Below are positions 4,453 through 48,000 of a stretch of DNA of 64,000 nucleotides, piece by piece. The DNA is from Candidatus Versatilivoraceae bacterium (GTDB lineage: Bacteria; Acidobacteriota; Terriglobia; Versatilivoradales; Versatilivoraceae), in assembly GCA_965197895.1 (NCBI GenBank), contig OZ240232.1, forward strand, positions 228,211 through 292,210, given 5' to 3'. Made by a program: the position numbers and the translations under genes. Under the pieces are notes generated by a model. It had not been told where the DNA came from and did no database searches. It worked only from the letters and a program-made list of their open reading frames with translations. Numbering within the stretch: position 1 is the first letter of the stretch; each line of letters begins with the position of its first letter.

Positions 4453-4655
4453 TGGGTCTCCTATGTCCTCAACCAGGGCAGAGAACTGAAAACTGGATTG
4501 GTAGCAACCTGCCGGAGTGATGAACACGGGCTGCGGGCGTGGATCCCATCCCAAGTCCCGGAGAACGTTCCCCGTAGCTGCTTGCGCCGGCTTCCCATCG
4601 ATTCTGGTCTGGAACCGGCCACCGAGCGGAGCGGTGAGCGCCCGGCTGAGAAGGC

Positions 4656-5537
4656 TCAGACGCCTTTGGCAATTCTCTCCTGCAAGTCGGCCATTTGCTC
4701 CATCTGTTTCATGAAGGCGATGGTTCCGGTGAGGATGGTTCTCCAATCGGGTTTGGCCGGAACGCTGTCGAGAGAGATATAGCCCGAGAACCCCATGGCG
4801 TTGAGAGTCCGCACAACCTGCAGAAAGTCGATATGACCGGTTCCGGGCGCCTGCCGGTTGTTGTCGGCCAAATGGATATGCATCAGCCGGTCACCGGCGG
4901 CCCGGAGGGCGTCGTTCAGGGGACCATCTTCCATGTTTACGTGGAAGAAATCGGCTAGGACGCCCAGGTTGCTGGCTCCGATCTCTTCAACGATGTCTTT
5001 GGCTTCAACCAGGCTGTTCAGAAAACCGGCGTAGCCTTCGAAACGATTGATGGGCTCGATGGCGATCTCGACGTTGCGTTCGGCTGCATACTCTGTGATT
5101 TCTCGGGTGGATTTGATGAAATTGGCGCGCAGGACGTTTCGGGGCGTCTTGGCCACCGGGTACTCGGATTGCGCCGGAGAGGCGACAATTTCAAAGACGG
5201 GAGGCTCGTCGAAGGTCGTTGCCAGATCGACGCTTTTTTTGGCATAGTCTACGCCGTGGCGCCGCTCCGATTCGTCACTCGAGGCCAGGTCCCGGACTTC
5301 GCCCGCGTGCCACGGTGCCCAGGCTCCAATCAAAGCCGGCACTTGTAGGCCCAGGGAGGTGGCCAGGTCCTTCACCTCGTCAAATTGCCTGGCATCGATG
5401 CGGTCCGGCTCGGCGTCCAGGTCGACACCGTCATAGCCCGCTTGGGCCACAGCCTCCAGAACCTCGCGGGGTTTCTCCCAGACGTTGCCGCCGCTCGACG
5501 CCAGCGTGCAGAGAATCACTGAATACTTGTGCCCCAT
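4656..5537 (-). CDS. sugar phosphate isomerase/epimerase (xylose-isomerase-like TIM barrel)
   Basis: The pattern ...IEPINRFEG...HIHLADNNRQAPGTGHIDF is characteristic of AP_endonuc_2. ATG at 5537 has a GGAGG SD 9 nt upstream, whereas the track start at 5558 lacks one. Confidence 0.8.
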   Translation of the reverse strand: MGHKYSVILCTLASSGGNVWEKPREVLEAVAQAGYDGVDLDAEPDRIDARQFDEVKDLATSLGLQVPALIGAWAPWHAGEVRDLASSDESERRHGVDYAKKSVDLATTFDEPPVFEIVASPAQSEYPVAKTPRNVLRANFIKSTREITEYAAERNVEIAIEPINRFEGYAGFLNSLVEAKDIVEEIGASNLGVLADFFHVNMEDGPLNDALRAAGDRLMHIHLADNNRQAPGTGHIDFLQVVRTLNAMGFSGYISLDSVPAKPDWRTILTGTIAFMKQMEQMADLQERIAKGV

Positions 5538-5683: not shown

Positions 5684-7123
5684 ATGAAGAAGCGAATCAT
5701 CCTGATCGGCTTTTTGCTTTGGACTGTCTTTGCAGTGGAGCGGCTGCAGGGCCACGGCGTCCTGGGCCAGGTGGTTCAGCACCACATCATTGTCACAGCC
5801 GGGGAGTTTCATATTGATGTGACAGTTGAACTGACATTTCATTCCGTTTTCGCCCAACGAGAACGCCAACGGTTGGATACCAATCGCGATGGGTTCATCG
5901 AGGCTAAGGAAGTCGAGCAATACCTTGCCGGTATTTTGGCCAAGCTCGAACCAGGCCTGAGAATGGAGACTCGGCAGCGAGAGATTGACCTGATACGGTT
6001 GCACCCTCCCGAGCTGGATTTATTGGGGAATGAGGAGTCAGGGGCTCATCCGCTCCGAGTGAGTGCCTTCTACCTGGCCAGACTTGACCGGGGGTTGCGG
6101 AAGGCGGGCGTTGTGGACCTGGAGGATCGCCTTTGGATGGAGGGTCATGCTCTGGCTATGAACACCACCAGCCTGGTGCGGGATCCCGATCGATACTATC
6201 TCTACGGCTGGATGTTCGACCGGGTCCACCGGCAGGGTGGGTTGACGGGCTACGCTCACGTTCATCGAACCTATCCTCAACTGCATCGGGACATGAGTAT
6301 CAATGTTCCCAAAAACAAAGTGGATTTCCTCGAGTTGATGCAAATTGGTATTTTAGGGACGAATCTCTACTACGAGTTTCTCAATCTCGGCTTCAAATTG
6401 ACCGCCGCCGCCGGATCGGATGTGCCTTTTGCGGGTACCGTGGGGGAAGTCAGAGTTTATGCTTACGCCCAGGAGCCTGCCGATGCCGACTCTTGGTTTG
6501 AAGCCGTGCGTCAGGGGCGGACCTTCGTCACCAATGGCCCCATGCTGGAATTGGAGGTCGGGGGAGCCATGCCGGGTGGGGAGGTCTTGGTGGAAAAGGA
6601 CCGGAAGGTTCGAGTCCGCGCGCGGACCTGGGGCCATCCCGAGCGGTCCCGCCCTTCTCGATTGGAGATTGTGCGCCACGGTCAGGTCATCCGCCAGGTT
6701 CACCCTGGCCATGCCGGTGAGCACGAATTGCGCCTTTCTTTCGAGCTTGAAGCTGAATCCGGCTACTGGATCGCGGCCCGTGCTGAAGGGGCCGATGGAT
6801 CTCGAGCCCATACCACCCCGGTCTACGTGGTTCGGAAACCCCTTCGTTTCTGGAAATACGACCAGGTCGAGCCGCTGATCACAACCCGACTGCATAGCTT
6901 GGTTGAGGTGGAACGCTTAGTGGACCAAGCCACCTCCATGAGCCAAGGCCAAATTGCTTATGAGCCACTGGGCACGGGTGAGGGCACCGGATGGTGGGAG
7001 ATCCAGCGCCTGGCAGAGCAGGGACCCGAGTTGCTGGAAAGGGTGGCGGAGGCCAGGAGGATCTATGAGCAACTGCGAGAAACCTGGAAACTGGAAAAGT
7101 CTCAGCGTGAGGGGGCCCGTTGA
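5684..7123 (+). CDS. secreted hypothetical protein (possible PHP/CehA-like metallohydrolase C-domain)
   Basis: N-terminal signal peptide MKKRIILIGFLLWTVFAVERLQG. The central segment GYAHVHRTYPQL...AAAGSDVPFAG...RTFVTNGP resembles PHP-type metal-dependent hydrolases. The functional assignment is weak. Confidence 0.5.
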   Translation: MKKRIILIGFLLWTVFAVERLQGHGVLGQVVQHHIIVTAGEFHIDVTVELTFHSVFAQRERQRLDTNRDGFIEAKEVEQYLAGILAKLEPGLRMETRQREIDLIRLHPPELDLLGNEESGAHPLRVSAFYLARLDRGLRKAGVVDLEDRLWMEGHALAMNTTSLVRDPDRYYLYGWMFDRVHRQGGLTGYAHVHRTYPQLHRDMSINVPKNKVDFLELMQIGILGTNLYYEFLNLGFKLTAAAGSDVPFAGTVGEVRVYAYAQEPADADSWFEAVRQGRTFVTNGPMLELEVGGAMPGGEVLVEKDRKVRVRARTWGHPERSRPSRLEIVRHGQVIRQVHPGHAGEHELRLSFELEAESGYWIAARAEGADGSRAHTTPVYVVRKPLRFWKYDQVEPLITTRLHSLVEVERLVDQATSMSQGQIAYEPLGTGEGTGWWEIQRLAEQGPELLERVAEARRIYEQLRETWKLEKSQREGAR

Positions 7124-7188
7124 TTCTTTGCAGAGGGGTCTCGCTCCGGGGATCGGGCGGGTGTACGACAAAAACGTTGGAATCGCAA

Positions 7189-7670
7189 ACCGGTTTAACG
7201 GGACATGGTCCTTGCTCCCGAAAGGCCATGAAGGCCGGTTGTTTCACCCTCGAATGATCCGCCCCGTCGTGGGGGGCGGGGGCCCCACTTGCCTGAAACA
7301 AACCTGGGCTCGGGTGACGGAAAATCGGTTCAACAGATTGAAAGAAAGGGGGTTGGAGAGGAATTGACAACTTCTGGGGGTTATCCAGGAAGGACACGGA
7401 GCCACACCCTACAATTCCCGGCGTTGGGTCTCGGCGTCGAGCATGAGTCGATCCCTGATTAACATCGATAGACAGGATAAACAGGATGGTTTGGAGAGAG
7501 GTTTCAGCGTCTTGAGTTCGACCATCGCCTTTTCTTCAACAAGGATTCCAAAAACCCGCTCCCAAGTTCATGGATCACTTCAAACGTGCACCCGATCATC
7601 GAGCGAGTCAGCTTCCTGTGCAGCAACACCCTTACAAATTCCAGTAACGTTTAATCTCATCCATTACAGT
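7189..7670 (+). repeat. single copy of the dispersed ~490-bp repeat unit (MITE-like core plus spacer), directly upstream of integrase 1
   Basis: Near-identical to the units in the 16805-17885 array and to 25915-26440 (inverted). Contains ATCGATAGACAGGATAAACAGGAT 9-mer iteron inverted repeats. Confidence 0.7.
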
Positions 7671-7738
7671 CCATAACTGTATTTTATATCAGTGGTTTAT
7701 ATGAGTCCCGCAATCGCGCGGCCGGCTCGAAACATCCC

Positions 7739-7773
7739 TTGCAATCCACTACCATCCCCCATATAATTAGGGG
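7739..7773 (+). promoter_or_regulatory. sigma70-type promoter TTGCAA-17nt-TATAAT with the -10 box inside the palindrome CCCC-ATATAATTA-GGGG, abutting the integrase ATG (leaderless mRNA predicted)
   Basis: TTGCAA at 7739-7744, 17-nt spacer, TATAAT at 7762-7767, ATG at 7774. The same architecture recurs at 39825-39859 in front of integrase 2. Confidence 0.55.
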
Positions 7774-9006
7774 ATGATTAATGTAACCAAAACCACCCGC
7801 CTGCTACTTAAGACGAAACCCAAGGGCCGCCATCCCCCAAAGGCCCTCTCGGCTGCCTTCATCCGCTCCGCTCCGCCTGGAAGACACGCCGACGGGAACG
7901 GATTGTACCTCTTCGTCCAACCCAGCGGAACCCGCAGCTGGATTCAGCGCCTTCTCGTCCGCGGTCGCCGCCGTGAGCTCGGACTCGGAAGTGTTGCCCT
8001 CGTTCCATTGGCCGAAGCCCGGGAGAAGGCCCTCGCCAACCGCAAGCTCGCCCGCCAGGGCGGAGACCCGCTCGCCGAGAAGCGCCGTGCCGAAGGCATC
8101 CCCACTTTCGCCGAAGCCGCCATGCGTGTGCTGGAGCAGAAGCAGGGCGGATGGCGCGGGCAGCGTCACCCTCGCGAGTGGCTGTCGAGCCTGAGGCGGT
8201 TCGCCTTCCCTCGCATCGGCAAGGTGCCGGTCTCAGAGGTTACGAGCGCCGACGTGCTTGAGATCCTCACGCCCATCTGGCACCGGAAGATAGAGACGGC
8301 CCGGCGAGTGCGCCAGCGCCTGCGGGCGGTCCTGGAATGGGCGGTAGCGATGGAGTACCGCCTTGACAACCCCTGCGACCGGATCGGACCGGTGCTGGGT
8401 GCCCAACAGGACGTTACCGAGCACAGGCAGGCCGTGCCCCATCGGGAGGCGGGTGCGGTGATCCGTAGGGTGCGGGCATCGGCAGCGCCGCCGGGCGTCA
8501 AGTTGGCTCTTGAGTTCCTGGTGCTGACGGCAGCCAGGTGGGGCGAGGTGCGGTGGGCCGAGTGGGAGGAGATCGATCGCAGCGGGAGGGTGTGGACCGT
8601 CCCGGCCAGGCGGATGAAGACGAACCGCCGGCACCGGGTGCCGCTGTGTGGCCGCGCCCTGGAGATTCTCGACACTGCGGAGATACAGGAGGGGGGAGTC
8701 GGTCCACTGGTGTTCACCCATAGGGGCGGGAAGCCTCTCAATGACAGCGTGCTGCGCCGGCTGCTGCGGGAGCTTGGGATTGCGGCGGTGCCGCACGGTT
8801 TCCGCTCGACCTTCCGGGATTGGGCGGGTGAGGAAACGGATCATCCCCGGGAAGTGATCGAGGCGGCCTTGGCGCATGTGGTCCGGAACCGGGTGGAGGC
8901 GGCCTATGCCCGCTCGGACCTGTTCGAACGCCGGCGCACGTTGATGGACGAATGGGCGCGTTACCTGGCCCAAGGGTCGGGAGAGGATCTGGAGCCCGTG
9001 GGATAA
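7774..9006 (+). CDS. int: P4-type tyrosine integrase (DUF4102 arm-binding N-domain + phage-integrase catalytic domain)
   Basis: N-terminal GRHADGNGLYLFVQPSGTRSWIQR (Arm-DNA-binding), C-terminal HGFRSTFRDWAGEE...AHVVRNRVEAAYARSDLFERRR with the R..H..R..Y catalytic residues. ~85% identical to the 39860..41092 copy. Confidence 0.9.
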   Translation: MINVTKTTRLLLKTKPKGRHPPKALSAAFIRSAPPGRHADGNGLYLFVQPSGTRSWIQRLLVRGRRRELGLGSVALVPLAEAREKALANRKLARQGGDPLAEKRRAEGIPTFAEAAMRVLEQKQGGWRGQRHPREWLSSLRRFAFPRIGKVPVSEVTSADVLEILTPIWHRKIETARRVRQRLRAVLEWAVAMEYRLDNPCDRIGPVLGAQQDVTEHRQAVPHREAGAVIRRVRASAAPPGVKLALEFLVLTAARWGEVRWAEWEEIDRSGRVWTVPARRMKTNRRHRVPLCGRALEILDTAEIQEGGVGPLVFTHRGGKPLNDSVLRRLLRELGIAAVPHGFRSTFRDWAGEETDHPREVIEAALAHVVRNRVEAAYARSDLFERRRTLMDEWARYLAQGSGEDLEPVG

Positions 9007-9162
9007 AGAGGCGGCCAGGGATCGGACCGACTCCACAGAAGGCGAGTCAGCGCCTCTGAGAGAGTGTGCCAGTCTCTAAGCACGGGACTACACCCGGACC
9101 ACCGCCCTCTTCGACACGCTGATAGTCTTCAGAAAGCTTGAATCTGCCAGCATGGTGACTGC

Positions 9163-10128
9163 ATGCCCAAGACCAGGGAAACCATGATTGCCCACCTGAA
9201 CGGACGGGAAAAACTGCTGAGGCCTCTTGGCTTCACCCCCCAACAGGCCGAATGGATCACCCTGGTCTGCCTGCACTCGGGCCTGTTCACCCGAGACCAG
9301 GTCGAGGCTTTCTTCGGATACGCCAAGTCTACCGCCAACCGCTTTATCCAGGCGTTGCTCCAGACACGCATTTCACACAAGCCAATAGCCTCGGAGACCA
9401 TCACCGACGGCCGCCGAGTTTGCCGGATCTTCGGCAAGCAGATCTACGGGGAGCTGGAGGTCCCCCACATCCGTCACCGCCGGGAGACCTCGCTTGAAGT
9501 CACCCGGCGGCGACTGCTATCGCTCGATTTCGTGCTGGATCATCCGGAGTTGGCTTGGCTGCCGACCGAGCAGGAGAAGGTCGCCTGCTTCCAACAGCTC
9601 GGGATCGAGCGAGGCTTTCTGCCTTTCAGGATCTACTCCGGCCATGCCAAGGGGCAGGTCCGGTATTTCCCCCTCAGGCTACCGGTTGCCATGGGGCCGG
9701 AGGCGGCCGTATTCGTCTACATCGACCCCGGCATGGGAACCCGTACGGAGCTGGACTCCTGGAGACATACCCACCGGCCGCTTTGGCAGGCGCTCCGCGA
9801 GTGCGGCTGGCGGATCGAGGTGGTTGCGGTCGCCTGGGAGCAGGAACTCCTGGACCGCGCCGAGCGGGTGATGCAATCCTGGGTCGGCAGAGACCTGACT
9901 GAGGCCGGCAGAGAACTTCTCATTCTCCGGTGGGCTGTCTCCAACGCCGACCGGGAAACAGTCGAACGCTATGGTGGCCTCAATGCCGCCCTCAAGAAAA
10001 TCAACCAATTGAAGCAGGCAACGCCGGAGCCCCAGGGCCTGGGAATGATCGACGATTTCCACCTCTGGGGGTCAAGGCGGTGCCGTCGTAGGCATGCGCC
10101 ACTGAAAAAGGGGGGGTGGCTCCTCTAG
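9163..10128 (+). CDS. integrase-element-associated hypothetical protein (wHTH-like N-terminus; possible replication/maintenance function)
   Basis: 321 aa, co-directional with int. A 5'-truncated paralogue lies at 46972..47506. No recognisable catalytic motif. Confidence 0.55.
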   Translation: MPKTRETMIAHLNGREKLLRPLGFTPQQAEWITLVCLHSGLFTRDQVEAFFGYAKSTANRFIQALLQTRISHKPIASETITDGRRVCRIFGKQIYGELEVPHIRHRRETSLEVTRRRLLSLDFVLDHPELAWLPTEQEKVACFQQLGIERGFLPFRIYSGHAKGQVRYFPLRLPVAMGPEAAVFVYIDPGMGTRTELDSWRHTHRPLWQALRECGWRIEVVAVAWEQELLDRAERVMQSWVGRDLTEAGRELLILRWAVSNADRETVERYGGLNAALKKINQLKQATPEPQGLGMIDDFHLWGSRRCRRRHAPLKKGGWLL

Positions 10129-10323
10129 TGGCGCACGCTCTTGACCACCGCAATGCTTCTCTCTCAGAGAGCGGAGCCCTCTCTGCTGTGGTCGGGGCCT
10201 TGCCTGGAAAGCCTTGTTGGAAGCGGTTTGGCACGGATTCCTGGCGTCGGCTGAGACAGCCGTGGTGGGGTGGCGGCTGGCGTGTTCCCGCCTCGCCCGG
10301 CGCACCGCACGAGACGGGTGATG

Positions 10324-10459
10324 GTGGAGGGAGCGACCCCCCGATTTTTGCCGCTGGTGCGGCACCGGGGAGGGGTAAAGGGTGACAGGCAAAACGACAC
10401 CTTTACCCTCCCCTTAAAGGGGGGTCGCTCCCTCCACAGTGATCCCTGCGGGAAGGCTG
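10324..10459 (+). repeat. palindromic module copy 1: 17-bp perfect inverted arms GGAGGGAGCGACCCCCC / GGGGGGTCGCTCCCTCC around a nested hairpin, with tail ACAGTGATCCCTGCGGGAAGGCTG
   Basis: Arms at 10326-10342 and 10419-10435. Other copies at 41208-41342 (inverted) and 47711-47846 (different centre). Confidence 0.75.
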
Positions 10460-10619
10460 ACGAGCCGATGAGGAGGTCAGGGCCGCCGCATCGACCACAG
10501 GCGGTGCGCTGCGCGGACCGACTGGAAGGAATTCAGTGGGGCAGTGTGGCGGGTGACCAGGGTGTCGAAGAAATGCCTGAGGGCAGCCAGGCTTGGTTGT
10601 TGGTTGCGTTTGGACATCG

Positions 10620-11108
10620 TCATGGACAAGATCCTTTATTGTCCTGAGGATACCAATCGCGAATTTGTGCGTTATTTGTTACACGCATTTTCTGGAAGCA
10701 CTCCATCGCACGCGTGAGATTTTGGGTTAGCGAATAGTAGTTGTCGATTGCGCGTTCCAGCATGTCCTTCGCCTCCTCATTTGCATCAAATTCGACAGTC
10801 TTCGAATCGCCAGGAGACCAGTGCTTTAGCTTATTCCTTGCGTAGTTTGCTCGTTTGGCAACGTCCCTTTCACTGAGTTCCCCGTCATAAAGCTGCTTGT
10901 GGATTTCAGGGACATCTTTCTTGAGAGAGTCCAAAGAATTCTCAGACTTCTCAAGTTTGTTTTCCTTTAGAAGTTTCCCAAAGATCTCCTCTGAAGCGCC
11001 CGCCAATGTGATCACGGAATAGTAATCCTCTTGTTCGAAGTACAGGCGAAGGGCGGTTTCAAGTTGCCTAAGCGCCATACACTGCGGGTCATGAGCCATG
11101 AGGGTCAT
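10620..11108 (-). CDS. small alpha-helical protein with Rx4H (HEPN-like) motif
   Basis: Start at ATG 11108 (AAGGAG SD 6 nt upstream) gives MTLMAHDPQC..., 162 aa. Contains ...AKRANYARNKLKHW. Local GC is markedly lower than in flanking genes. Confidence 0.5.
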   Translation of the reverse strand: MTLMAHDPQCMALRQLETALRLYFEQEDYYSVITLAGASEEIFGKLLKENKLEKSENSLDSLKKDVPEIHKQLYDGELSERDVAKRANYARNKLKHWSPGDSKTVEFDANEEAKDMLERAIDNYYSLTQNLTRAMECFQKMRVTNNAQIRDWYPQDNKGSCP

Positions 11109-14103: not shown

Positions 14104-14275
14104 ATTGATACTCGGCTGACCAGTCCGCTAACGTCCCTGAGGGTCCCGTGGATTCCTTTTTGAAAAAAGGGATATAATGAGGAAACTGTAGCGGGCTGAT
14201 CCGCGTTAAGTCTATTATAATTAATGGTTTATATTTGAGAGATTGCAGGCTGTGCAGGCGCGGGCTCGTTGTGAG
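14104..14275 (+). repeat. P1 repeat copy (TTGATACTCGGCT...GGGATATAATGAGG...GCAGGCTGTGCAG)
   Basis: Homologous to 16506-16804 and 48001-48165. Confidence 0.7.
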
Positions 14276-16505: not shown

Positions 16506-16804
16506 ATTGATATTCGGCTGACCTGTCCCTCAGTAACTGTTCGGTCAAGCCGTGATGGCTTGGACCCGGACGAGGTTGGAGGTGCCTGCAATCACAGGCG
16601 ATCCGTCGGTTCTGCTCGCTGCGCCTCCCCGGGACGGCGGATGGTCTCCACGGCTTGGCCGAACGGTTACGTCCGCCAACGTCCTGGAGGGTCCAATGGA
16701 TTCCTTTTCGAAAAGAGGGATATAATGAGGGAACTTCAGTCGGATAAACCATATTAAGTCTATTATAATTAGAGGTTTACAAACTATAGGTTGCAGGCTG
16801 TGCA
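16506..16804 (+). repeat. P1 repeat copy carrying a ~130-bp internal insertion
   Basis: Shares both ends with the other P1 copies; the extra segment lies at 16520-16690. Confidence 0.6.
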
Positions 16805-17885
16805 GCAGCTTCTCGTCCTGTTTATCCTGTCTATCCTGTCTATCGATGTTCCCTAATGCAACAAACCGGTTTAACGGGACATGTCCCTACTCCGGAAAGG
16901 TCATGAAGGTCCGTTGTTTCACTCTCGAATGATCCGCCCCGTCGTGGGGGCGGGGGCCGGCTTGCCTGAAACAACATCTGGGTTCGGCTGAAGGAAAACC
17001 GGTTGAGGGGTTATCCAGGAAGGACACGAAGTTACACCCTACAATTCCCGGCGTTTGGTATCGGCCTCGAGCATGAAAAGACTAATTGACATCGATGGAC
17101 AGGATAAACAGGATTATTTGGCGAGAGGTTTCAGCCTCTTGAGTTCGACCATCGCCTTTTCTTCAACAAGGATTCCAAAAACCCGCTCCCAAGCTCATGG
17201 ACCCCTTCAAACGTGCACCCGATTATCGAACCAGTCAGCTTCCCGTGCAGCAGCTTCTCGTCCTGTCTATCCTGTCTATCCTGTCTATCGATGTTCCCTA
17301 ATGCAACAAACCGGTTTAACGGGACATGTCCCTACTCCGGAAAGGTCATGAAGGCCGGTTGTTTCACTCTCGAATGATCCGCCCCGTCCTGGGGGGCGGG
17401 GGCTATACTTGCCTGAAACAAACCTGGGTTCGGGTGAAGGAAAACCGGTTCAACAGATTGAAAGAAAGGGGGTTGGAGAGGAATTGACAACTTCTGGGAG
17501 TTATCCAGGAAGGACACGAAGTTACACCCTACAATTTCCGGCGTTTGGTATCGGCGTCGAGCATGAAAAGACTAATTGACATCGATGGACAGGATAAACA
17601 GGATTATTTGGCGAGAGGTTTCAGCCTCTTGAGTTCGACCATCGCCTTTTCTTCAACAAGGATTCCAAAAACCCGCTCCCAAGCTCATGGACCCCTTCAA
17701 ACGTGCACCCGATTATCGAGCCAGTCAGCTTCCTGTGCAGCAGCTTCTCGTCCTGTCTATCCTGTCTATCGATGTTCCCTAATGCAGCAAACCGGTTTAA
17801 CGGGACATGGTCCCTGCTCCCGAAAGGCCATAAGGGTCCGTTGTTTCACCCTCGAATGATCCACCCCGTCGTGGGGGCGGGGGCC
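16805..17885 (+). repeat. tandem array (~2.3 units) of the ~490-bp repeat
   Basis: The units beginning at about 16805 and 17230 are >90% identical, and a third partial unit begins at about 17725 and ends at 17885. Each unit holds a ~340-bp segment bounded by 23-bp inverted repeats ATCCTGTCTATCCTGTCTATCGAT / ATCGATGGACAGGATAAACAGGAT. Confidence 0.8.
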
Positions 17886-25641: not shown

Positions 25642-25914
25642 TCCAGGGAGGGGTCCCCGGCAATACTCAAAGTAGGGGTTTTAGGGCGAAGCAGGCCTTG
25701 GGCCGGGGGGAGCGGGCGCTGCCGCTGCTGCCCGAAGCCCGAGGAGTAGGGCCCCGAATGAATGCGACCAGGATGTTGCTTGAGGATTCGGGGACGGACG
25801 GCCCAAAGAGTCCCAAGGAGGCAATGGGAAGGCCGCTTACCAGACCTTCCCTGGCAGTGGGACTGTCAGGTGATTACCGTCACTGTACAGACACGGGCGG
25901 ACCAGAGGTAAGTG

Positions 25915-26440
25915 GGGCCCCCGCCCCCCAGGACGGGGCGGATCATTCGAGGGTGAAACAACGGATCCTTATGGCCTGTCGCGAGTAGGGACCATGTCCC
26001 GTTAATCGGGTTTGCTGCATTAGGGAACATCGATAGACAGGATAGACAGGATAAACAGGACGAGAAGCTGTTGCACAGGAAGCCGACTCGCTCGATGATC
26101 GGGTGCGCGTTTGAAGTGATCCAGTAGCTTGAGAGCGGGTTTTCGGAATCCTTGTTGAAGAAAAGGTGATGGTCGAACTCAAGGGGGTGAAAACTCTCGT
26201 CCCGGAGCATGCAGCCCAGACCATCAACAAACCATCCTGTTTATCCTGTCCATCGATGTTAATCAGGGATCGACTCATGCTCGACGCCGAGACCCAACGC
26301 CGGGAATTGTAGGGTGTGGCTCCGTGTCCTTCCCGGATAACCCCCACAAGTTGTCAATTCCTCTCCAACCCCCTTTCTTTCAATCTGTTGAACCGGTTTT
26401 CCGTCACCCGAACCCAGGTTTGTTTCAGATAAGTATAGCC
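25915..26440 (-). repeat. inverted copy of the ~490-bp repeat unit
   Basis: Reverse complement of the 16805-17885 array consensus. Confidence 0.75.
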
Positions 26441-26450
26441 CGAGCCGGAT

Positions 26451-31218: not shown

Positions 31219-31749
31219 TCGACACCTCCCCGGATACCTGCAGCACCCTTGCCACCACCCGCATGTCGCTGCTAGCGTGGCTACGGAGCTTGGTTTCTGT
31301 ATCTCACATCGATAGACAGGATGGACAGGATGAACCAGATGGTTTTCTGTCTCTATTATCCTGTCCATCCTGTTCATCCATGTTCCATTTCATCGATCCA
31401 TAATCTTCCACAGGTCATGCAGCAAGCGCAGGGTCTTTCCGAAGACATCAATCAGCAGTTTGCTAAAGGTTAGCCTTGCCCCCGCCCCATACGACGGGGC
31501 GGATCATTCGAGGAAAAACGGCTGATCGTTAATGAAGACGAACCACGAATGGACACGAATAGACCAGAAGACAGATGGGCCTCCTTCAACGACAAGCGGC
31601 ACCAAAATGCATCTGCAATTTTGTGACCTTGGTGCAGCCCTTGGTGTCCTTCGTGTCCATTCGTGTCCCTTCGTGGTTCTTCGTGCCCCTTCGTGGATTT
31701 CTTTTTTTTGGCCTTGGTGGATAACCCCTCAATTGGTTTCAGGTAAGCC
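31219..31749 (+). mobile_element. 531-bp non-coding insertion flanked by 23-bp direct repeats (GGTCTGARGCMGAGCCTCGCTAG) that duplicate the BNR-gene stop codon
   Basis: DRs at 31196-31218 and 31750-31772. The interior holds a TIR-TIR hairpin of the 9-mer-iteron MITE (31296-31400) and a CACGAAGG-type iteron block (31600-31700). Confidence 0.6.
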
Positions 31750-31768
31750 GGTCTGAGGCAGAGCCTCG

Positions 31769-38009: not shown

Positions 38010-39215
38010 TCAGGCCGTGACCAGAGAAAGGAGCCAGCCCAGGACCCCGCCCCCGACCACAATCCAGGCCAGGTTGACTTTCCAGCGAAGACCGATGAGG
38101 ATGGCTGCCAAGGCAATGAGCCAGGCCGGCCAGGCGGTGAGAGTGGCCTGGCCCAGCTTCACGGTGACGGCCGCCATCAGTGCCACGGCGCTGACGTTGA
38201 CCGAATCCAGGAAGGCTGAGGTCCATCGGGACTGGCGCAGGCGAGGCACCCAGGGATTGATGAGGGCTACGAAGAGGAAGGATGGAGCGAAAATGCCGGT
38301 GGTCGCCACCGCCGAGCCCGGAATTCCGCCGATCATGTAACCGATGAAGGTGGCGGTGGAAAGGACGGGTCCGGGTGTGAATTGACCGATGGCGATGGCG
38401 TCCAAGAGTTGGCGCTGAGTCAGCCAGCCGTATTCGTGTACCAGACCGCCCTGCAGAAAAGCGACCAGCACGTAACCGCTTCCATAGAGCACGGCGCCGA
38501 CTTTCAGGAAGAAGAGGCCCAGCGCCCACAACGAGGCCGGCGCCGCTCCCGCCCCGCCGGCTCCCACCATGGCCGCCAGCAGGATCTGCGACTTCGCGCC
38601 CAGCCACTGGCCCAACCAGGTTACCGCAAGGATCGGGAGGATCTTTCCCCGTTGGGAGCGAACCGCCTGGGGCAGCCGCAACCAGAGCATGCCGGCAACG
38701 CCGCCGATCAGCAGTGCCGCGACCTCGTTGACCTGGAGCAGGGAGGCGATCAAAACGCCACCGCCGATGACCCCCAACGACCAGGTCTTACAAGCCTTGT
38801 TCCCCAGCCTCCACACCGACAGGGCAATGACCGCCAAGACGGCGGGCTTGATTCCGAGCAACCAGGGTGCAACCTGCGGAAGCTGTCCGAACCCGACGTA
38901 GATCCAGGCCAGGCCGGCGGTCAAGCCGACGGCAGGAAGAATGAAGCAGATTCCTGCAACCGCCAGGCCGCTCCAACCGGCTCTGACGTAGCCGAGATGG
39001 ATGGCCATCTCGGTTGAGTTCGGACCTGGGATCAGGTTGGTGGCCCCCAGCAGATCCAGGAAGCGTTCCCGTTTCAGCCAGGCTCGGCGAGCCACCACCT
39101 CTTCTTCCATCATGGCGATATGGGCTGCCGGCCCCCCAAAGCCCAGGACACCCAGCTTCAGGAAGACCAGCGCCAGTTCCTTGAGGCGGGCGAGGTTGCT
39201 TTCGTTCGGGGTCAT
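38010..39215 (-). CDS. chrA: chromate transporter (CHR family, fused two-domain form)
   Basis: Has LKLGVLGFGGPAAHIAMMEEEVV and a second FLKVGAVLYGSGYVLVAFLQ half-repeat. Confidence 0.85.
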   Translation of the reverse strand: MTPNESNLARLKELALVFLKLGVLGFGGPAAHIAMMEEEVVARRAWLKRERFLDLLGATNLIPGPNSTEMAIHLGYVRAGWSGLAVAGICFILPAVGLTAGLAWIYVGFGQLPQVAPWLLGIKPAVLAVIALSVWRLGNKACKTWSLGVIGGGVLIASLLQVNEVAALLIGGVAGMLWLRLPQAVRSQRGKILPILAVTWLGQWLGAKSQILLAAMVGAGGAGAAPASLWALGLFFLKVGAVLYGSGYVLVAFLQGGLVHEYGWLTQRQLLDAIAIGQFTPGPVLSTATFIGYMIGGIPGSAVATTGIFAPSFLFVALINPWVPRLRQSRWTSAFLDSVNVSAVALMAAVTVKLGQATLTAWPAWLIALAAILIGLRWKVNLAWIVVGGGVLGWLLSLVTA

Positions 39216-39339
39216 GGCCGAGGAATCAAAGGTCGGGCACAGGGCGGGAGGATGCTAACACAGATCCAGCCCATCTCAACGGGAAGAGGCTTGCCTGAAA
39301 CCAATTGAGGGGTTTATCCACAAAGGCCAAAAAAAGAAA

Positions 39340-39635
39340 TCCATGAAGGTGATCCACAAAGAGCACGAAGGGGAAAAGAGATATCCACGAAGGGGCACGA
39401 AGGACCACGAAGGGCCACTAAGGGGTTGGAGAAGGCTCAAGAGGGATCCGCCAAAGGTCGGGAAGGGGGAATAGATTTCCAGGAAGGGGCTGAAGTATCT
39501 GTCAAGGGGGTAAAAGATTAATCCGCGAAGGGACTCTAAGGGGTTGGAAAAGACTCGAAAGGGGTCTGTGAAGGACCACGAAGAAAGACACTAAGGAAAA
39601 AAGAAATCCACGAAGGACACGAAGTTGCACCAACG
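39340..39635. repeat. array of >=12 degenerate 8-9-mer direct repeats (CACGAAGG / CACTAAGG) at ~10-25-bp spacing
   Basis: Seen directly: cacgaagggg, cacgaagggg, cacgaagga, cacgaaggg, cactaagggg, ctctaagggg, cacgaagaa, cactaagga, cacgaagga, cacgaagtt. A shorter inverted block lies at 31600-31700. Confidence 0.7.
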
Positions 39636-39824
39636 TTGCGAAAATAATGTAGATTTTGGATCGCTTCAAACGCGGATCTGATCATTGAGCTAGTCAGCTT
39701 CCTGTGCAGCAACATTCTTATAGATTCCAATGGCGTTTATCTTCGTCCAGTACAGTCTATTACTGTCTTTATTATCATTGACTTATGTGAGTTCCGTCGT
39801 CGCTTGGCCAGCTTGCATCATCCC

Positions 39825-39859
39825 TTGCAATCCACTGGCATCCCCTATATAATAAGGGG
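39825..39859 (+). promoter_or_regulatory. second copy of the TTGCAA-17-TATAAT integrase promoter inside the CCCC-TATATAATA-AGGGG palindrome
   Basis: Same architecture as 7739-7773; ATG at 39860. Confidence 0.55.
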
Positions 39860-41092
39860 ATGATTGCTGGAACCCATACCGCCTGTCTGCTACCCAGAAC
39901 CAAACCCAAGGGCCGCCATCCCCCAAAGGCCCTCTCGGCTGCATTCCTGCGCTCCGCTCCGCCCGGAAGACACGCCGATGGAAACGGATTGTACCTCTTC
40001 GTCCAGCCCAGCGGAACCCGCAGCTGGATTCAACGCCTCCTGGTCCGCGGCCGCCGCCGTGAGCTCGGACTCGGCAGCGTTGCCCTGGTCCCGCTGGCCG
40101 AGGCCCGGGAGAAGGCGCTCGCCAACCGCAAGCTCGCCCGCCAGGGCGGGGACCCGCTCGCCGAGAAGCGACGTAGCCAGGCCGTCCCCACCTTCGCCGA
40201 AGCCGCCATGCGTGTGCTGGAACAGAAGCGGGACGGATGGCGCAACCCGAGACACCCGCGCGAGTGGATCTCGAGCCTGAGGCGGTTCGCCTTCCCGCGC
40301 ATCGGCAAGGTGCCGGTCTGTGAGGTCACGAGCGCCGATGTCCTTGAGATCCTCACGCCCATCTGGCACCAGCAGGCCCCCACGGCCCGGCGGGTGCGCC
40401 AGCGCCTGCGGGCGGTCCTGGAATGGGCCGTAGCCATGGAGTACAGGATCGACAACCCCTGCGACCGGATCGGCCCGGTCCTGGGTCTCCAACAGGACGT
40501 TATCGAGCACATGCAGGCCTTGCCCCATCGGGAGGTGGCTGCGGTGATCCGGACGGTGCGGGTATCCCCAGCTCTGCCGGCCGCCCGGCTGGCCCTTGAG
40601 TTCCTGGTGCTGACGGCAGCCAGGTGGGGCGAGGTGCGGTGGGCTGAGTGGGAGGAGATCGATCGTAGCGGGAGGGTGTGGACCGTCCCGGCCAAGCGGG
40701 CAAAGACGAACCGCCGGCACCGGGTGCCGCTGTGTGGCCGTGCCCTGGAGATTCTCGAGGCGGCGCAGGCACTGGAGCAGGGAGCCGGTCCGCTGGTGTT
40801 CACCCATGGGGGCGGGAGGCCTCTCCATGACAGCCAGCTGCGCCGCCTGCTGCGCGAGCTTGGGGTTGCGGCGGTGCCACACGGGTTCCGCTCGACCTTC
40901 CGGGACTGGGCGGGTGAGGAAACGGACCATCCCCGGGGGGTGATCGAGGCGGCCCTGGCGCATGTGGTCCGGAACCGGGTCGAGGCAGCCTATGCCCGCT
41001 CGGACCTGTTCGAGCGCCGGCGTATCCTGATGGACGACTGGGCGCGTTACCTGGCCCAAGGGATGGAGGAGGAGTCGGAGCCCTTGGAGTAA
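39860..41092 (+). CDS. int: P4-type tyrosine integrase, copy 2
   Basis: 410 aa, collinear with 7774..9006. Confidence 0.9.
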   Translation: MIAGTHTACLLPRTKPKGRHPPKALSAAFLRSAPPGRHADGNGLYLFVQPSGTRSWIQRLLVRGRRRELGLGSVALVPLAEAREKALANRKLARQGGDPLAEKRRSQAVPTFAEAAMRVLEQKRDGWRNPRHPREWISSLRRFAFPRIGKVPVCEVTSADVLEILTPIWHQQAPTARRVRQRLRAVLEWAVAMEYRIDNPCDRIGPVLGLQQDVIEHMQALPHREVAAVIRTVRVSPALPAARLALEFLVLTAARWGEVRWAEWEEIDRSGRVWTVPAKRAKTNRRHRVPLCGRALEILEAAQALEQGAGPLVFTHGGGRPLHDSQLRRLLRELGVAAVPHGFRSTFRDWAGEETDHPRGVIEAALAHVVRNRVEAAYARSDLFERRRILMDDWARYLAQGMEEESEPLE

Positions 41093-41207
41093 AGAGGCCC
41101 AAGGGATCGGTTGCCCGGGGCAAACCAGGGTGAGAGCCAGGCTCGAAGTCCGGCGGCAGTCAAAGCCAGGTTGAGCAGGACAACCCGGGTCCAGGTCTTC
41201 AGCATTT

Positions 41208-41342
41208 CAGCCTTCCCGCAGGGATCACTGTGGAGGGAGCGACCCCCCTTTAAGGGGAGGGTAAAGGTGTCGTTTTGCGTGTCACCCTTTACCCCTACCC
41301 GGTGCCGCACCAGCGGTCAAAAAGGGGGGGTCGCTCCCTCCA
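41208..41342 (-). repeat. palindromic module copy 2 (inverted relative to integrase; centre identical to copy 1)
   Basis: Reverse complement of 10324-10459. The adjoining 41350-41520 is the inverted 3' flank of the 9163 gene family. Confidence 0.75.
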
Positions 41343-41660
41343 CCAGCACCCCTCTCGTGCGGCGCGCCGCCGCGCCGGTCGGGAGGGGGACACGCGAGGC
41401 GCAGCCTCGCTTCGCTGTTTCGCATTGGACGCGGAAAATGCTTGTCCTTCCGCGTCTGATGCGGCGTTTCGGGAAAACCCTTAACCACAACGGAGAGGCC
41501 TCCGCCCTCTGAGAGAAAAGCGTTGTCGTGCTCAAAAACATGTCACCCCTCGATGTCACCCCCCCCCTTCGGAAAGGGTGACACCCATACGGCGGCATCT
41601 GCTTGACCCCCAGAGGCGGAAATCGTCGACCATTCCGCGGTCATTGGGTGAGCCTGTTTC

Positions 41661-41897
41661 TTGCTCCGATTCATCCCCGCGTCTGTGGGGAACAGGACCG
41701 TGACCAGTATTCCCGAATGGCTGAAGACGGATCATCCCCGGGAGGTGATCGAGGCAGCCCTGGCGCATGTGGTCCGGAACCGGGTCGAGGCAGCCTATGC
41801 CCGCTCGGACCTGTTCGAACACCGGCAGGTCCTGATGGATGACTGGGCGCGTTACCTGGCCCGAGGGACGGGGGAGAATCTGGAGCCCTTCGGGTAA
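41661..41897 (+). pseudogene. integrase C-terminal fragment (third copy, ~65 aa)
   Basis: DHPREVIEAALAHVVRNRVEAAYARSDLFEHRQVLMDDWARYLARG. Homology begins abruptly at 41735. Confidence 0.8.
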
Positions 41898-42054
41898 ACA
41901 GGCCCGTGGACCCTGCCGGAGGTGTGGAAAACCCCGCGGCGCCGGACCGGTACGCTGCAAGCTCACTAGAGAGTTTCCCATACCTCCTTGGACGGGCACT
42001 CCCCGCCCACAGGCTCCACCGTCCCGGCGGCGGTCTTTTTGAATAATCCATTAA

Positions 42055-43164
42055 CCCGCATTTCTTGCCGGGGGGGCGTGAAAATGGCGCAGGAATTTTC
42101 CCCTCAGCGCGTGCTCGTGAGCGAAAAGCGTAGCGGTTTCTACGGTCGAGCGAGCATGTGCGCGCTGAGGGAAAAAGGACGAGCCAGAGTGCGCCCAGCA
42201 CCGTGTGTCATTGGAAACCGTCAAAATAGACCTACAAGCTGTTGAAAACACACCGTCGTTGCACGGTGTATCCAGCGACCCGGGTAGAGTCGAGGACTGG
42301 CGCGTTGACTATAGGGTCCGGTGGCTATTCCGTCGCTTTCGCTTCGGGCCTCAGTCCGGCTCCCTTATCACGTTTCCAGTCCCCGCTCTCCGAACCGGAC
42401 GTGCGGTTTTCCCGCATCTCGGCTCTCCAGTGGGATCATGCCTCTCGCACACAGGTCTCCGCTCGCATCCGTGGACGACTCCTATGGGACTGGCACTCGT
42501 CCCCCACTCCATCCACGTCCGCTCGCGGGTTGCCGCCAGGCCTGTTGACGCCCCGACGACGCCGTCCTCATCAGACGACCCCTTCGCTTTGGCATGTGAT
42601 GCTTCCGGAGTCTCCGGTCCTTTTGCCGGGGTTTCAGGCTTTCGCCACTCCCGGGACCCTTCCCCCTTCGGTCACCGCTCCTCACCTGAGGCCCCTTCCC
42701 TCCACCGGCATTACCCGGCTTCTCCAGTACTACGAGCCTCTCCGCCACCCTGCCGGCCCAGCCTCCCCCTCACGGGGTCCCGGTTCGATGCGTGCCTCAC
42801 CACCCACAGGGCTTCCCATGTTGCCACCTTCTTCCCCTTCCATGCGTGCCAGCGCCACTACCCCGGCGGATCCCGAGGGGTGCCCGCGTCGCTCGCTTCC
42901 CCCTCCGTCTTCGGCCTTCCCCATTTCTCAGGTGGGTCGCCCCCCGCATTGCCCGTTTCGAGGCCTGCTCGACGTTCACTCGCGTTCCGGCCCGCATGTT
43001 CGCTGAACCGCCCAAAGCAGCCCTTTGAACCAGGGTGCTTCAGACCCTATCGTTACCTCCATGATCCGCCCTGGCTGCTACCAACCGGAGCGACAGTTGT
43101 TGGACGGGTTTCGCACCCGTTAGAAGAAGGCGCCTTTCCATGGCGCACTGAGAAATGCGGGTTA
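42055..43164 (-). mobile_element. second copy of the 18-bp-TIR MITE, interrupted by a group II intron
   Basis: Left TIR 42055-42071; right TIR TGAGAAATGCGGGTTA at 43149-43164. Collinear with 35083-35325 except for the insert at 42285-43148. Confidence 0.75.
42285..43148 (-). ncRNA. ORF-less group II intron (864 nt)
   Basis: Minus-strand 5' end GUGCGC, 3' end ...CUCGACUCUAC. Domain V GAGCCGAGAUGCGGGAAAACCGCACGUCCGGUUC at 42392-42427. The insertion is precise relative to the empty MITE copy. No RT ORF. Confidence 0.7.
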
Positions 43165-43363
43165 GGCTGTCTCAGGACCGCGCTCTTCTTCAGCAATGGC
43201 GCGCCGTCCGTCAATGACCAGAGACCGGTTCCCTAATCTCATCAGTCCTTTAGTAAGGTGTGGCTCGAACGTGCTGTGTTTAAAATCACCCAAATACGTT
43301 ATAGTGTGCCTTTCATCATCTAACCCCTTCAGACATTACCCGAGAAACCGGAGAGAACTCGTC

Positions 43364-46971: not shown

Positions 46972-47506
46972 GCAGGAGAAAGTTGCCTGCTTCAAGTAGC
47001 TCGGCGTCGACCCCAAGCTACTCCCGAAACGCATCTACGCCGGCCGCGCCAACGGACGCATCCGGTATTTCCACATCAAGATGCCAGTCGCCGTCGACGG
47101 TGACCGGGCCATCTTCGCCTACATGGATCCTGGCATGTCCACCCGAAGCCCGCTCCATTGCTGGGGCCAAGCCCACCGGCAGCTTTGGGACAAGCTCCGG
47201 CAGGCAAGCCGGACTGTCGAAGTATTTGCGGTCGCTTGGTACCAGCACCATCTCAACCGCACCCAGCGGGTTCTCCAGGCCTGGACAACCCGAGACCCGG
47301 CAGCGGCCAAGACAGAAGCGGCGGGGCTGCGGCAAGCCATCGCTGATGCCGATTGGGACACCGTCGAACGCCATGGCGGCCTCGACGCCGTCGTGGATAA
47401 GATCGACCAAGCTGAGGAGGAAACGGCGGCCTGGGCCGGAGCAGGATGGATCGACCATTTCCGCCTCCGGGGATCAAGCTCGTGGCGTCAAATGACCGCA
47501 ATTTGA
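46972..47506 (+). pseudogene. 5'-truncated paralogue of the 9163..10128 integrase-element gene
   Basis: Homology starts 6 bp after the LRR stop and covers the C-terminal ~175 aa (..KVACFQQLG.., YMDPGMSTRS..). It is followed by the same 3' flank and palindromic module. Confidence 0.7.
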
Positions 47507-47710
47507 AAGTCATTGTCAAATTGCGCAGACAAGCCCTGTATTTCCGCCTCTCTCAGAGGGCGGGGCCCTCGCCGTTGTGGTGTGCTCGTTTCAGGAAAAC
47601 CGTTACGGGACGCGGGTTTTCCCGCGTCCTCACCCCCTAAGGGGGCGGGGCTGTGCCCCGCGCGTCCCCCTTCCGGCCAGCGGAGATGGTGGCGCACAAT
47701 AAGGGAGAAA

Positions 47711-47846
47711 GTGGAGGGAGCGACCCCCCTTTTTGCCTTCAAAGTGCGCCACCGAGCAGGGATGACAATTGCGCACCAAATTGCGCACTTTTCCTCCCCT
47801 TTTCGTGGGGGGGCGCTCCCTCCACAGTGATCTCTGCGGGAAGGCT
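47711..47846 (+). repeat. palindromic module copy 3 (same arms, different centre GTGCGCCACCGAGCAGGGATGACAATTGCGCACCAAATTGCGCAC)
   Basis: Arms at 47713-47728 and 47806-47822 (one mismatch). The tail ACAGTGATCTCTGCGGGAAGGCTG is conserved. Confidence 0.75.
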
Positions 47847-48000
47847 GTCGAGTCGGCTAGGAAGCCGACAGCGGAAAAACAGCAGACCATAAATGGCCCT
47901 CAGGCCGAGACGGGTAAGCCTGGGGGATGCACACAACCCAATATCTCCGACCCGCAGCACGGGCAGCTTGCCACTCCACTTGACGGCCTCGGACTCAGGG

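Follow-up and report, generated by a model that had tools for sequence, protein, structure and literature searches.

The window analysed here, a stretch of 64,000 nucleotides of contig OZ240232.1 from Candidatus Versatilivoraceae bacterium, contains small integrase-encoding elements. The first of these, copy 1, is a discrete element of ~2.9 kb at positions 7626 to ~10457, which occurs in many genomic contexts in Candidatus Versatilivorator (Acidobacteriota). The element contains genes for an integrase and a 321-residue protein (ORF321), and a hairpin followed by a conserved motif; it holds nothing else, including no type IV secretion system (T4SS) genes. In our view, copy 1 probably represents a minimal form of integrative mobilizable element (IME) in Candidatus Versatilivorator-like Acidobacteriota, composed of an integrase, a candidate relaxase, and a putative origin of transfer (oriT). 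The features of copy 1 and its borders are as follows.

7571–7625, forward strand: left target sequence (attL, bacterial side) of 55 bp, ending in the core CTGTGCAGCA (7616–7625); common to copy 2 and repeat junctions.
7626–7773, forward strand: left arm of the element with the integrase promoter and an inverted repeat, recognised by conservation across 13 elements.
7739–7744, forward strand: −35 box TTGCAA of the first integrase gene (int1).
7762–7767, forward strand: −10 box TATAAT of int1, separated by a 17-nt spacer from the −35 box and by 6 nt from the ATG at 7774.
7774–9006, forward strand: int1, intact gene of a P4-type (DUF4102-type) tyrosine integrase of 410 residues, identified from Pfam, PHROG, and the translation.
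9163–10128, forward strand: ORF321, probable start ATG at 9184; candidate relaxase or oriT-processing protein with a predicted winged helix and PD-(D/E)xK-like nuclease fold.
10324–10457, forward strand: oriT-like region, a three-way hairpin and then GTGATCCCTGCGGGAAGG, at the right end of the conserved unit.
10458–10510, forward strand: remnant (53 bp) of a type of flank that at other loci continues into an integrase gene in convergent orientation, identified by comparison with loci L091 and L087.

The P4-type family assigned to the integrases by the initial annotation of this DNA is confirmed by two intact genes, int1 and int2, with the full three-domain Pfam architecture. The two proteins are 85.6% identical and contain the domains Arm-DNA-bind_3, Phage_int_M, and Phage_integrase in this order. 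The E-values for int1 are 7e-18 (PF13356), 1e-25 (PF22022), and 5e-13 (PF00589), each past the curated cut-off, and int1 matches PHROG 1 'integrase' at 1e-54; int2 has the same domains. The catalytic residues R...HxxR...H/W...Y, read by eye from the translations and not superposed on a structure, lie in the segments TAARWGE, HGFRSTFRDW, LAHVV, and AAYARSD of both proteins. Integrases of the P4 type usually target the 3' end of a tRNA or tmRNA gene, which is a habit of the family and not a strict criterion. As the initial annotation stated, the window contains no tRNA gene: ARAGORN detects neither tRNA nor tmRNA in the 64 kb, and Rfam likewise finds none. A tRNA, a tmRNA, or a known RNA was therefore rejected as the integration target, and the left junction sits in the sequence ...AGTCAGCTTCCTGTGCAGC.

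Pairwise comparisons showed that the unit is shared by at least 11 loci with different flanks, and that its limits are ~−149 and ~+2683 relative to the integrase ATG. Homology reaches ~203 nt 5' of the ATG only where the target sequence is shared. All of the 13 aligned elements begin after ...GCAGC|AAC, and their left arm reads AACAYYCTT...AATTCCA. To the left of the junction, the flanks in the 13-sequence alignment fall into four or more unrelated families, the majority of which still carry ...GATCATCG.GC.AGTCAGCTTCCTGTGCAGC. The contigs L001 and L002, which like L085 stem from the ERZ2506–ERZ2507 sample series, have integrase and ORF321 genes at 99.6–99.9% identity and different left flanks: nine of the 38 positions directly left of AGCCAGTCAGC differ, compared to about a dozen differences over the next 2.9 kb. 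Because the divergence is concentrated left of AGCCAGTCAGC, the recombination junction is placed there. The same pair was discarded for determining the right end, since the right flank is common to both contigs once an inserted sister element is removed; the right end was defined from the 11-locus comparisons, and pairwise homology among loci ends at the hairpin and motif region. The left end is sharp, and the right end is consistent at the motif, within the sequence ...CACAGTGATCCCTG.... Conserved chromosomal sequence begins at ~10511, and the flank type of the 53-bp remnant preceding it is also present in L002, L007, L021, L097, and L098. This right flank was considered as a relic of a coupling-protein gene; however, merely the first two to three codons are alike, and a remnant of the convergent-integrase flank fits better.

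Each genome contains several copies of the element. The common boundaries and differing flanks of the at least 11 loci characterise discrete elements rather than the simple segmental duplications that the initial annotation had named as the alternative. The initial annotation placed the start of the element at 7739, which is the position of the −35 box; the left end is the junction ...CTGTGCAGC|AAC at ~7625/7626. Mapping of the copies, which the annotation expected to define attL, attR, and the target, delineated the left junction but yielded no clean direct repeat for attR.

The genes around relatives of ORF321 indicate where the second half of the element comes from. Among 80 genome loci, relatives at ~60–90% identity mostly have a P4-type integrase gene upstream, whereas more distant ones (~45%, plus some at 60–70%) have none. 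All 12 of the integrase-less loci examined contain an operon for TrbI/VirB10, an unknown gene product, TrbL/VirB6, VirB8, the ORF321 homologue, a TraG/TrwB-type coupling protein, and VirB11. At these conjugative loci, the hairpin and motif are positioned directly before the start codon of the coupling-protein gene. A compact integrative and conjugative element (ICE) from Longimicrobiales (L083), viewed over 20.9 kb, encodes an S24 repressor, VirB2, B3, B4, B9, B10, B6, and B8, the ORF321 homologue, the coupling protein, VirB11, ArdC, an HTH_17 Xis-like protein, and an integrase. None of the proteins encoded in these 20.9 kb was found to have a known relaxase domain. Adjoining the integrase end of this ICE is an inverted, truncated P4-type integrase gene with only the arm and central domains (L083 18357–19232, reverse strand), and P4-type integrases are thus also located beside Gemmatimonadota conjugative elements. 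T4SS loci of the helper type co-reside with the small elements in the same genomes (CBDAOQ010000003.1, OZ242296.1), and the co-resident T4SS-bearing relatives share the sequences of the outer stem and motif with the small units.

Synteny shows that the ORF321 gene and the hairpin form a module evidently derived from conjugation, and therefore the elements are best seen as IMEs. The unit encodes a site-specific recombinase and ends at discrete positions in the different genomic contexts that it occupies; its ORF321 gene and hairpin with motif are homologous to the module of the T4SS operons, and it lacks mating-pore genes. The initial annotation correctly recognised a small integrase family but missed both the conjugation-derived module of the 321-residue protein gene and hairpin, and the motif-like target.

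The hairpin of copy 1 has an outer stem of 19 bp (10324–10342 paired with 10420–10438) and is followed by the motif TCCCTGCGGGAAGG at 10444–10456. The predicted DNA fold has an energy of −46.3 kcal/mol (z = −10.3). Of 82 loci from Acidobacteriota and Gemmatimonadota, ~75 contain the sequence GGGGTCGCTCCC-N(10-13)-ATCCCTSCGGGAAGG ~300 nt 3' of their ORF321 homologue, and a long three-way hairpin is predicted in every lineage. In an alignment of 25 sequences, double changes occur in six of the 16 predicted pairs. The 12-pair outer stem contains 30 sequence-pairs with a double Watson-Crick change and none with a single-sided change of the G-U type, and the inner seven stem pairs are essentially invariant. 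The stem GAGCGACCCC/GGGGTCGCTC does not vary in sequence, and neither does the downstream motif. The restriction of covariation to Watson-Crick pairs, together with the invariant inner pairs, is more in keeping with a hairpin in DNA or a symmetric site for a protein than with a structured RNA, and Rfam contains no family that matches the hairpin region. As judged from sequence, the region has the organisation of an oriT, with an inverted repeat next to a conserved putative nick-region sequence, beside candidate relaxase and coupling-protein genes. We infer that the hairpin and motif constitute the oriT and that ORF321 is the relaxase.

ORF321 is predicted to consist of a winged helix and a restriction-endonuclease-like (PD-(D/E)xK-like) domain, the scores of the nuclease fold being moderate. 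Its conserved acidic and lysine residues include D122, E136, E138/K139, D188, and E219. A protein search identified at least 2392 homologues; those named by their sources are all 'hypothetical protein', and the closest are from Candidatus Versatilivorator metagenome-assembled genomes (Acidobacteriota). The family comprises 2578 clusters at 50% identity. Annotation of the ORF321 sequence yielded nothing in Pfam (E ≤ 10), NCBIfam, or PHROGs, and nothing relevant from a PDB sequence profile. Three family members of 610–721 residues (P0376, P0379, P0424) are fusions in which ArdC (ArdcN and a zincin-like MPTase) is joined to the ORF321 domain. ArdC is a single-stranded DNA-binding anti-restriction protein of conjugative systems.

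ORF321 could alternatively regulate transcription, initiate replication, or serve as a recombination directionality factor, and the hairpin could be a terminator or regulatory structure between two genes, so that copy 1 would be an integrase island with an accessory regulator. The N-terminal domain of ORF321 resembles MarR/ArsR repressors, its weak structural matches include XisH/XisI-type excision-control proteins, and the element has no separate excisionase gene. The moderate nuclease-fold scores and the lack of a sequence link to known relaxases are also compatible with such a role. However, the position of the ORF321-family gene directly 5' of the coupling-protein gene is fixed in T4SS operons of two phyla, the family includes fusions to ArdC, and the ICE has no other recognisable relaxase. 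Furthermore, the invariant stem and motif suggest a DNA site recognised by a protein and not a terminator, no T-run follows the hairpin, and the stem lacks G-U intermediates. We consider a regulatory role unlikely and favour the relaxase and oriT assignment. Going further, we propose tentatively, and with less confidence than the IME assignment, that the ORF321 family is a previously unrecognised family of restriction-endonuclease-fold relaxases that drives compact conjugative elements of Acidobacteriota and Gemmatimonadota, and that P4-like integrases use its nick-site motif for attachment.

The left arm of the element contains the integrase promoter. The arrangement described in the initial annotation, TTGCAA, 17 nt, TATAAT, 6 nt, and ATG, is exact in both copies, and the layout is kept in 13 related elements of other genomes. 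A consensus scan of positions 7000–11000 identified the int1 promoter as the sole promoter-like match on the forward strand (10 of 12 positions, with 0.7 sites expected on both strands). Among 12 non-redundant elements, the mean pairwise identity is 87.5% for the promoter segment 7730–7773, 97% for the −10 box, 92% for the 17-nt spacer, and 63–71% for the remaining left arm. The ATG at 7774 is the sole usable start of int1: an in-frame TAG is located two codons 5' of it, and the next in-frame start is codon 44, within the arm-binding domain. There is no Shine-Dalgarno sequence at a usable distance from the int1 ATG, and the only purine-rich stretch directly abuts it. A sister integrase subfamily has the promoter arrangement TTGCAT, 18 nt, TATAAT, 7 nt, ATG. 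Since the −10 box is kept 6–7 nt before the ATG across both subfamilies, a leaderless integrase mRNA is the most economical reading of the promoter geometry and conservation, and the mRNA is probably leaderless. The mRNA of lambda cI transcribed from PRM is leaderless. The integrase genes resemble this example in having a −10 box 6–7 nt 5' of the AUG and no Shine-Dalgarno sequence; unlike in lambda cI, the start codon belongs to an inverted repeat bracketing the −10 box, and the leaderless status is read from sequence alone.

The inverted repeat consists of CATCCCC (7753–7759) and GGGGATG (7770–7776) separated by 10 nt, and contains the ATG. The perfect palindrome around the −10 box reported in the initial annotation was not found: the AT-rich centre is not palindromic, and only an inverted repeat with arms of 7 bp in copy 1 and 8 bp in copy 2 is conserved. 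In the sister subfamily, a CCCC-N8-GGGG repeat falls within the promoter spacer, and the −10 box has moved downstream of the repeat. The C4/G4 repeat and the ATG-proximal −10 box are thus both kept but independently of each other, which indicates a separate role for the repeat. The operator, possibly autoregulatory, role suggested in the initial annotation is a conjecture; the repeat most likely binds a protein or, in the subfamily of the window, occludes the ATG in read-through transcripts. A different possibility is that transcription starts upstream and an RNA hairpin of CATCCCC...GGGGATG sequesters the ATG, or that TATAAT is a binding site for the integrase or a host factor in the attachment arm. 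The inclusion of the ATG in the repeat, the conservation of the spacer, which is unusually high for a simple promoter, and the selection of the repeat independently of the −10 box in the sister subfamily agree with this possibility. We regard it as improbable, because both subfamilies have TATAAT 6–7 nt before the ATG and a TTGNNN box 17–18 nt farther upstream, there is an in-frame stop just upstream of int1 and no usable Shine-Dalgarno sequence, and the hairpin is weak as DNA or RNA (−6 to −8 kcal/mol). The conserved promoter with a probably leaderless transcript and a start codon within an inverted repeat provides a compact model for the control of integrase expression.

The 55-bp left target (7571–7625) is also the last 55 bp of a 490-bp repeat unit. 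The 55 bp with the core CTGTGCAGCA are present at 39657–39711 and at the repeat junctions 17243, 17733, and 26069 (reverse strand) as well. Copy 1 adjoins the 490-bp repeat, and copy 2 adjoins CCACGAAGG arrays. Because the 55 bp and core end each 490-bp unit and follow the CCACGAAGG arrays, the initial annotation was correct in suggesting a non-tRNA site bordered by the 490-bp repeat and iteron arrays. The integration sequence ...GATCATCGAGCSAGTCAGCTTCCTGTGCAGC| is thus carried by gene-less repeats. The opposite strand of the left target, GCTGCACAGGAAGCTGACTCGCTCGATGA, can be aligned to CCCTGCGGGAAGGCTGACGAGCCGATGA, the motif with its flank, and the left target therefore resembles an inverted copy of the motif and flank. 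Based on this alignment, we propose that both integrase subfamilies attach at motif-like sequences.

The gene-less repeat, 445–490 bp long, is located at 7131–7653, 16800–17883 (~2.3 tandem units), 25906–26446 (inverted), and 48146–48299, and has no Rfam match at E ≤ 1. Its first ~150 nt extend from the core CTGTGCAGCA to a GC-rich hairpin, and the other ~340 nt end in the 55-bp target and core. As the units are bounded by copies of the core, they look like decayed cis-mobilizable elements (CIMEs), from which they may originate. The repeat arrays are preceded by a flank of ~135 nt (14123–14258, 16671–16807, 48019–48155), which contains two TATAAT boxes (GGGATATAATGAGG, TATTATAATTA), ends in TTGCAGGCTGTGCAG, and is similar to a portion of the integrase arm (GGTTTATAT box). 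Possibly this flank marks where an element of another type ends, or it acts as promoter for the repeat's first half. Arrays similar to CCACGAAGG at 39300–39620 and 31657–31750 (inverted) bracket a segment of ~7.6 kb with a chromate transporter gene (38010–39215), and such arrays also flank the element in L001 and L004.

Elements of the sister subfamily, the integrases of which are ~65% identical in amino acids to those of the window, are inserted in inverted orientation exactly within the motif of a resident element in L002, L007, and L021. The insertions are flanked by the 8-bp direct repeat CCCTGCGG, and L001, L006/L008, and L011 are the unoccupied counterparts. In principle, the insertion could be catalysed by the ORF321 nuclease or relaxase, through relaxase-mediated site-specific recombination at nic sites, and not by the integrase. 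Both the right end of the unit and the sister insertion point coincide with the putative nick motif, and the left target looks like an inverted motif. Nevertheless, the sister elements that insert at the motif have a truncated ORF321 gene and an intact integrase gene, the junction always abuts the integrase arm, and identical 8-bp cores at the two ends are what tyrosine recombinases typically leave. Catalysis by ORF321 is therefore very unlikely, and we attribute the insertions to the integrase.

The second copy and the relics of the family in the window comprise the following features.

39657–39711, forward strand: left target of copy 2 with the core CTGTGCAGCA at 39702–39711, preceded by CCACGAAGG arrays; L001 and L004 share this flank type.
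39712–41110, forward strand: integrase module of copy 2 (arm, promoter, and int2), 86.8% identical to 7571–9025.
39825–39830, 39848–39853, and 39860, forward strand: −35 box TTGCAA, −10 box TATAAT, and ATG of int2, with geometry identical to int1.
39860–41092, forward strand: int2, intact P4-type integrase gene, 410 residues, identified from its Pfam domains.
41111–41636, reverse strand: inverted fragment of a conjugative element, 77% identical to 10042–10460 by blastn.
41727–41903, forward strand: 3' fragment of an integrase gene (last ~57 codons), 88% identical to 8836–9012.
46972–47855, forward strand: relic with the C-terminal two-thirds of ORF321, the hairpin, and the motif (47832–47844), 64% identical to 9570–10467.

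Positions 39500–41111 are 95.6% identical to L001, where the neighbouring genes are different. In the inverted fragment, ~31 codons from the 5' end of a T4SS coupling-protein gene (41111–41206) are accompanied by the motif, the hairpin, and the final ~90 nt of an ORF321 gene. The translation of 41111–41206, MLKTWTRVVLLNLALTAAGLRAWL, matches the N-termini of coupling proteins from L009 and L017–L020. The initial annotation listed the integrase 3' fragment and the relic, both of which are present, the former translating to ...DHPREVIEAALAHVVRNRVEAAYARSDLFEHRQ...; its list of copies omitted the inverted fragment, which is derived from the conjugative-element module. A convergent layout like that of copy 2 is also found in L025 and L093, and ORF321 is full length in L025. 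The shared layout constitutes a second architecture of the two modules, which directly shows the origin of the mobilization module from conjugative elements.

The architecture of copy 2 is broken by the integrase 3' fragment and by a group II intron without an open reading frame. The intron (42283–43160, reverse strand) was identified from Rfam matches to domains D1–D4 (42980–43122) and V/VI (42284–42427). An 879-bp copy of the intron, 95.9% identical, lies inside the T4SS operon of L018/L023 (3787–4664), and the intron therefore appears to be mobile without a reverse transcriptase of its own. Positions 43196–46966 contain a 1256-residue open reading frame with ~18 tandem repeats of 72 nt (24 residues) at 43753–45408, which ends 5 nt before the ORF321 relic. 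It may be cargo of the disrupted copy-2 island or an insertion in it.

Copy 1 and its right neighbour are common to strains that are 99.6% identical (L085/L086) and to those that are ~81% identical (L090–L092), and because both near and distant strains share it, copy 1 is old at this locus. Beside the same 162-residue protein gene, the L087 locus (TARA contig, 4562–4900), which is orthologous to ~10336–10540 of the window, has only the hairpin in truncated form, the motif, and the 5' end of a coupling-protein gene, and lacks both integrase and ORF321. L087 was considered as a clean empty site based on the neighbouring 162-residue protein gene and was rejected, since the decayed hairpin and coupling-protein relic leave no clean attB. 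At the locus of L087 and copy 1, such modules recurrently land or decay.

Several observations weigh against the IME interpretation or its parts. The subfamily of the window has no clean direct repeat, as the left junction CCTGTGCAGC and the right end CCCTGCGG have only CCTGYG in common. An unoccupied palindromic attB (CAGCTTCC-N-GGAAGCTG) was found neither in the window nor in 83 loci. A tblastn comparison of ORF321 to 72,556 plasmids (E ≤ 1e-3) gave no match, including none to the known MOBC relaxases. The ICE also encodes unannotated proteins, for example one of 295 residues, which are potentially the true relaxase. Copy 1 is 80–82% identical to the elements in L090–L092 next to the same right neighbour and may no longer move. 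Circular or tandem (right-end/left-end) junctions were absent from two scans of metagenome contigs, the first of which, a pattern scan, gave 0 matches, and the second, for the right end only, six contigs, all of known flank types. Finally, L085, which is 99.6% identical to the window over 4.2 kb, lacks 164 bp with the att core, arm, and −35 box. The gap in L085, at 9345/9346 (window 7600–7763), may reflect an immobilising deletion or, at 10x coverage, an artefact of the assembly.

The copies in the window might accordingly be immobile relics, that is, segments duplicated and rearranged by homologous recombination among repeats, with the apparent ends being repeat boundaries. Copy 1 has been passed on vertically together with its right neighbour and lacks clean flanking direct repeats, the orthologous L087 site contains only a decayed hairpin relic, and copy 2 is disrupted and mixed with inverted fragments, the group II intron, and the integrase fragment. 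Yet near-identical units are present in unrelated contexts, in L001 compared to L002 and in copy 2 compared to L001. The left junction is at the same nucleotide in 13 elements from several flank families, both integrase genes in the window are intact, and the sister subfamily provides exact pairs of occupied and unoccupied sites. We consider it quite unlikely that the copies are immobile relics formed in this way. The element family is, by the comparison of its loci, mobile.

For a mobile element of this kind, a mechanism can be proposed. The P4-type tyrosine integrase would perform both integration and excision. It may be expressed from the conserved sigma-70-type promoter, presumably without a 5' leader, and the CATCCCC...GGGGATG repeat probably binds a protein or blocks the translation of read-through transcripts. 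The ORF321 gene, the hairpin, and the TCCCTGCGGGAAGG motif were, as synteny shows, copied from compact conjugative elements, in which they are located between virB8 and the coupling-protein gene. ORF321 may recognise the hairpin and nick DNA at or near the motif, so that the T4SS of a co-resident helper could export the excised element. Integration presumably occurs at the short conserved ...GATCATCGAGCSAGTCAGCTTCCTGTGCAGC|, at which the junction is observed, and not at a tRNA gene. Elements of the sister subfamily, as seen in the related loci, insert precisely in resident motifs and leave CCCTGCGG repeats. Such insertions may produce nested and tail-to-tail arrays like the copy-2 region.

If correct, this reading fills in the DNA-processing enzyme and oriT that had been missing from a large group of conjugative and mobilizable elements. 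These belong to little-studied and mostly uncultured phyla, and standard relaxase profiles find nothing in the elements studied here. The minimal unit of 2.9 kb, with an integrase, one protein, and one hairpin, offers a concrete, testable system for mobilization. It would also be a second, phylogenetically remote case of integrases that target oriT nick sites, which would explain the build-up of nested arrays, with hitchhikers parasitising one another's oriT as well as that of their own helpers.

The element is most likely of a kind already known, in that IMEs, IME_oriT elements, and MOBC-like relaxases have been described; new are minimal elements built around an unannotated candidate relaxase and oriT module of acidobacterial and gemmatimonadotal conjugative elements. 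The MOBC relaxases pAD1 TraX and CloDF13 MobC are related to PD-(D/E)XK enzymes, and TraX has an N-terminal winged helix (PMC12857230). ORF321 is similar in its predicted N-terminal winged helix and restriction-endonuclease-like fold, and its gene, like MOBC genes, adjoins a coupling-protein gene and a putative oriT with repeats. It differs in having no detectable sequence similarity to TraX or MobC and in belonging to a family found in chromosomal loci, without plasmid matches. Because ORF321 has no sequence similarity to plasmid proteins or Pfam families, we claim analogy with MOBC relaxases and not membership among them.

The integrases share with those of P4/CP4-57-type islands the three-domain architecture, the catalytic motifs, and the location of the gene at the extreme end of the element beside the junction. 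However, their target is a short sequence in gene-less repeats or oriT-like motifs and not the 3' end of a tRNA or tmRNA gene. Streptococci contain tyrosine-integrase IMEs that use the nic site of ICE oriTs for integration, and documented there as well is accretion with decayed CIMEs (PMC5704250). The CCCTGCGG insertions and the motif-like left target match elements of the IME_oriT type. Like the IME_oriT elements of Streptococcus agalactiae (PMC5704250), those described here are small integrase hitchhikers that insert in a conserved, putative oriT nick region of resident conjugative or mobilizable elements and can be multicopy. Unlike them, they occur in Acidobacteriota, have an Arm-DNA-bind_3/P4-type integrase, and carry an unrelated candidate oriT and Mob protein; for the subfamily of the window, the oriT-motif targeting is deduced from similarity and not from occupied and empty pairs.

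The combination of an integrase gene, a candidate Mob gene, and a putative oriT in a two-gene element, with the dependence on a helper T4SS that we propose, corresponds to the Tn5520/NBU-type mobilizable transposons of Bacteroides (PMC5704250). The present element has ~2.9 kb compared to 4.7 kb of Tn5520, its Mob candidate is PD-(D/E)xK-like and does not have the HUH fold, and it is known from sequence alone. The gene-less, core-bounded 490-bp units in tandem with integrase elements, and the arrays of intact and decayed elements at one site, resemble CIME and tandem accretion (Pavlovic 2004, Bellanger 2011, in PMC5704250). In contrast to such accretion, the orientation in the window is often inverted (tail-to-tail) and not head-to-tail, and the 490-bp unit is only presumed to descend from a decayed element.

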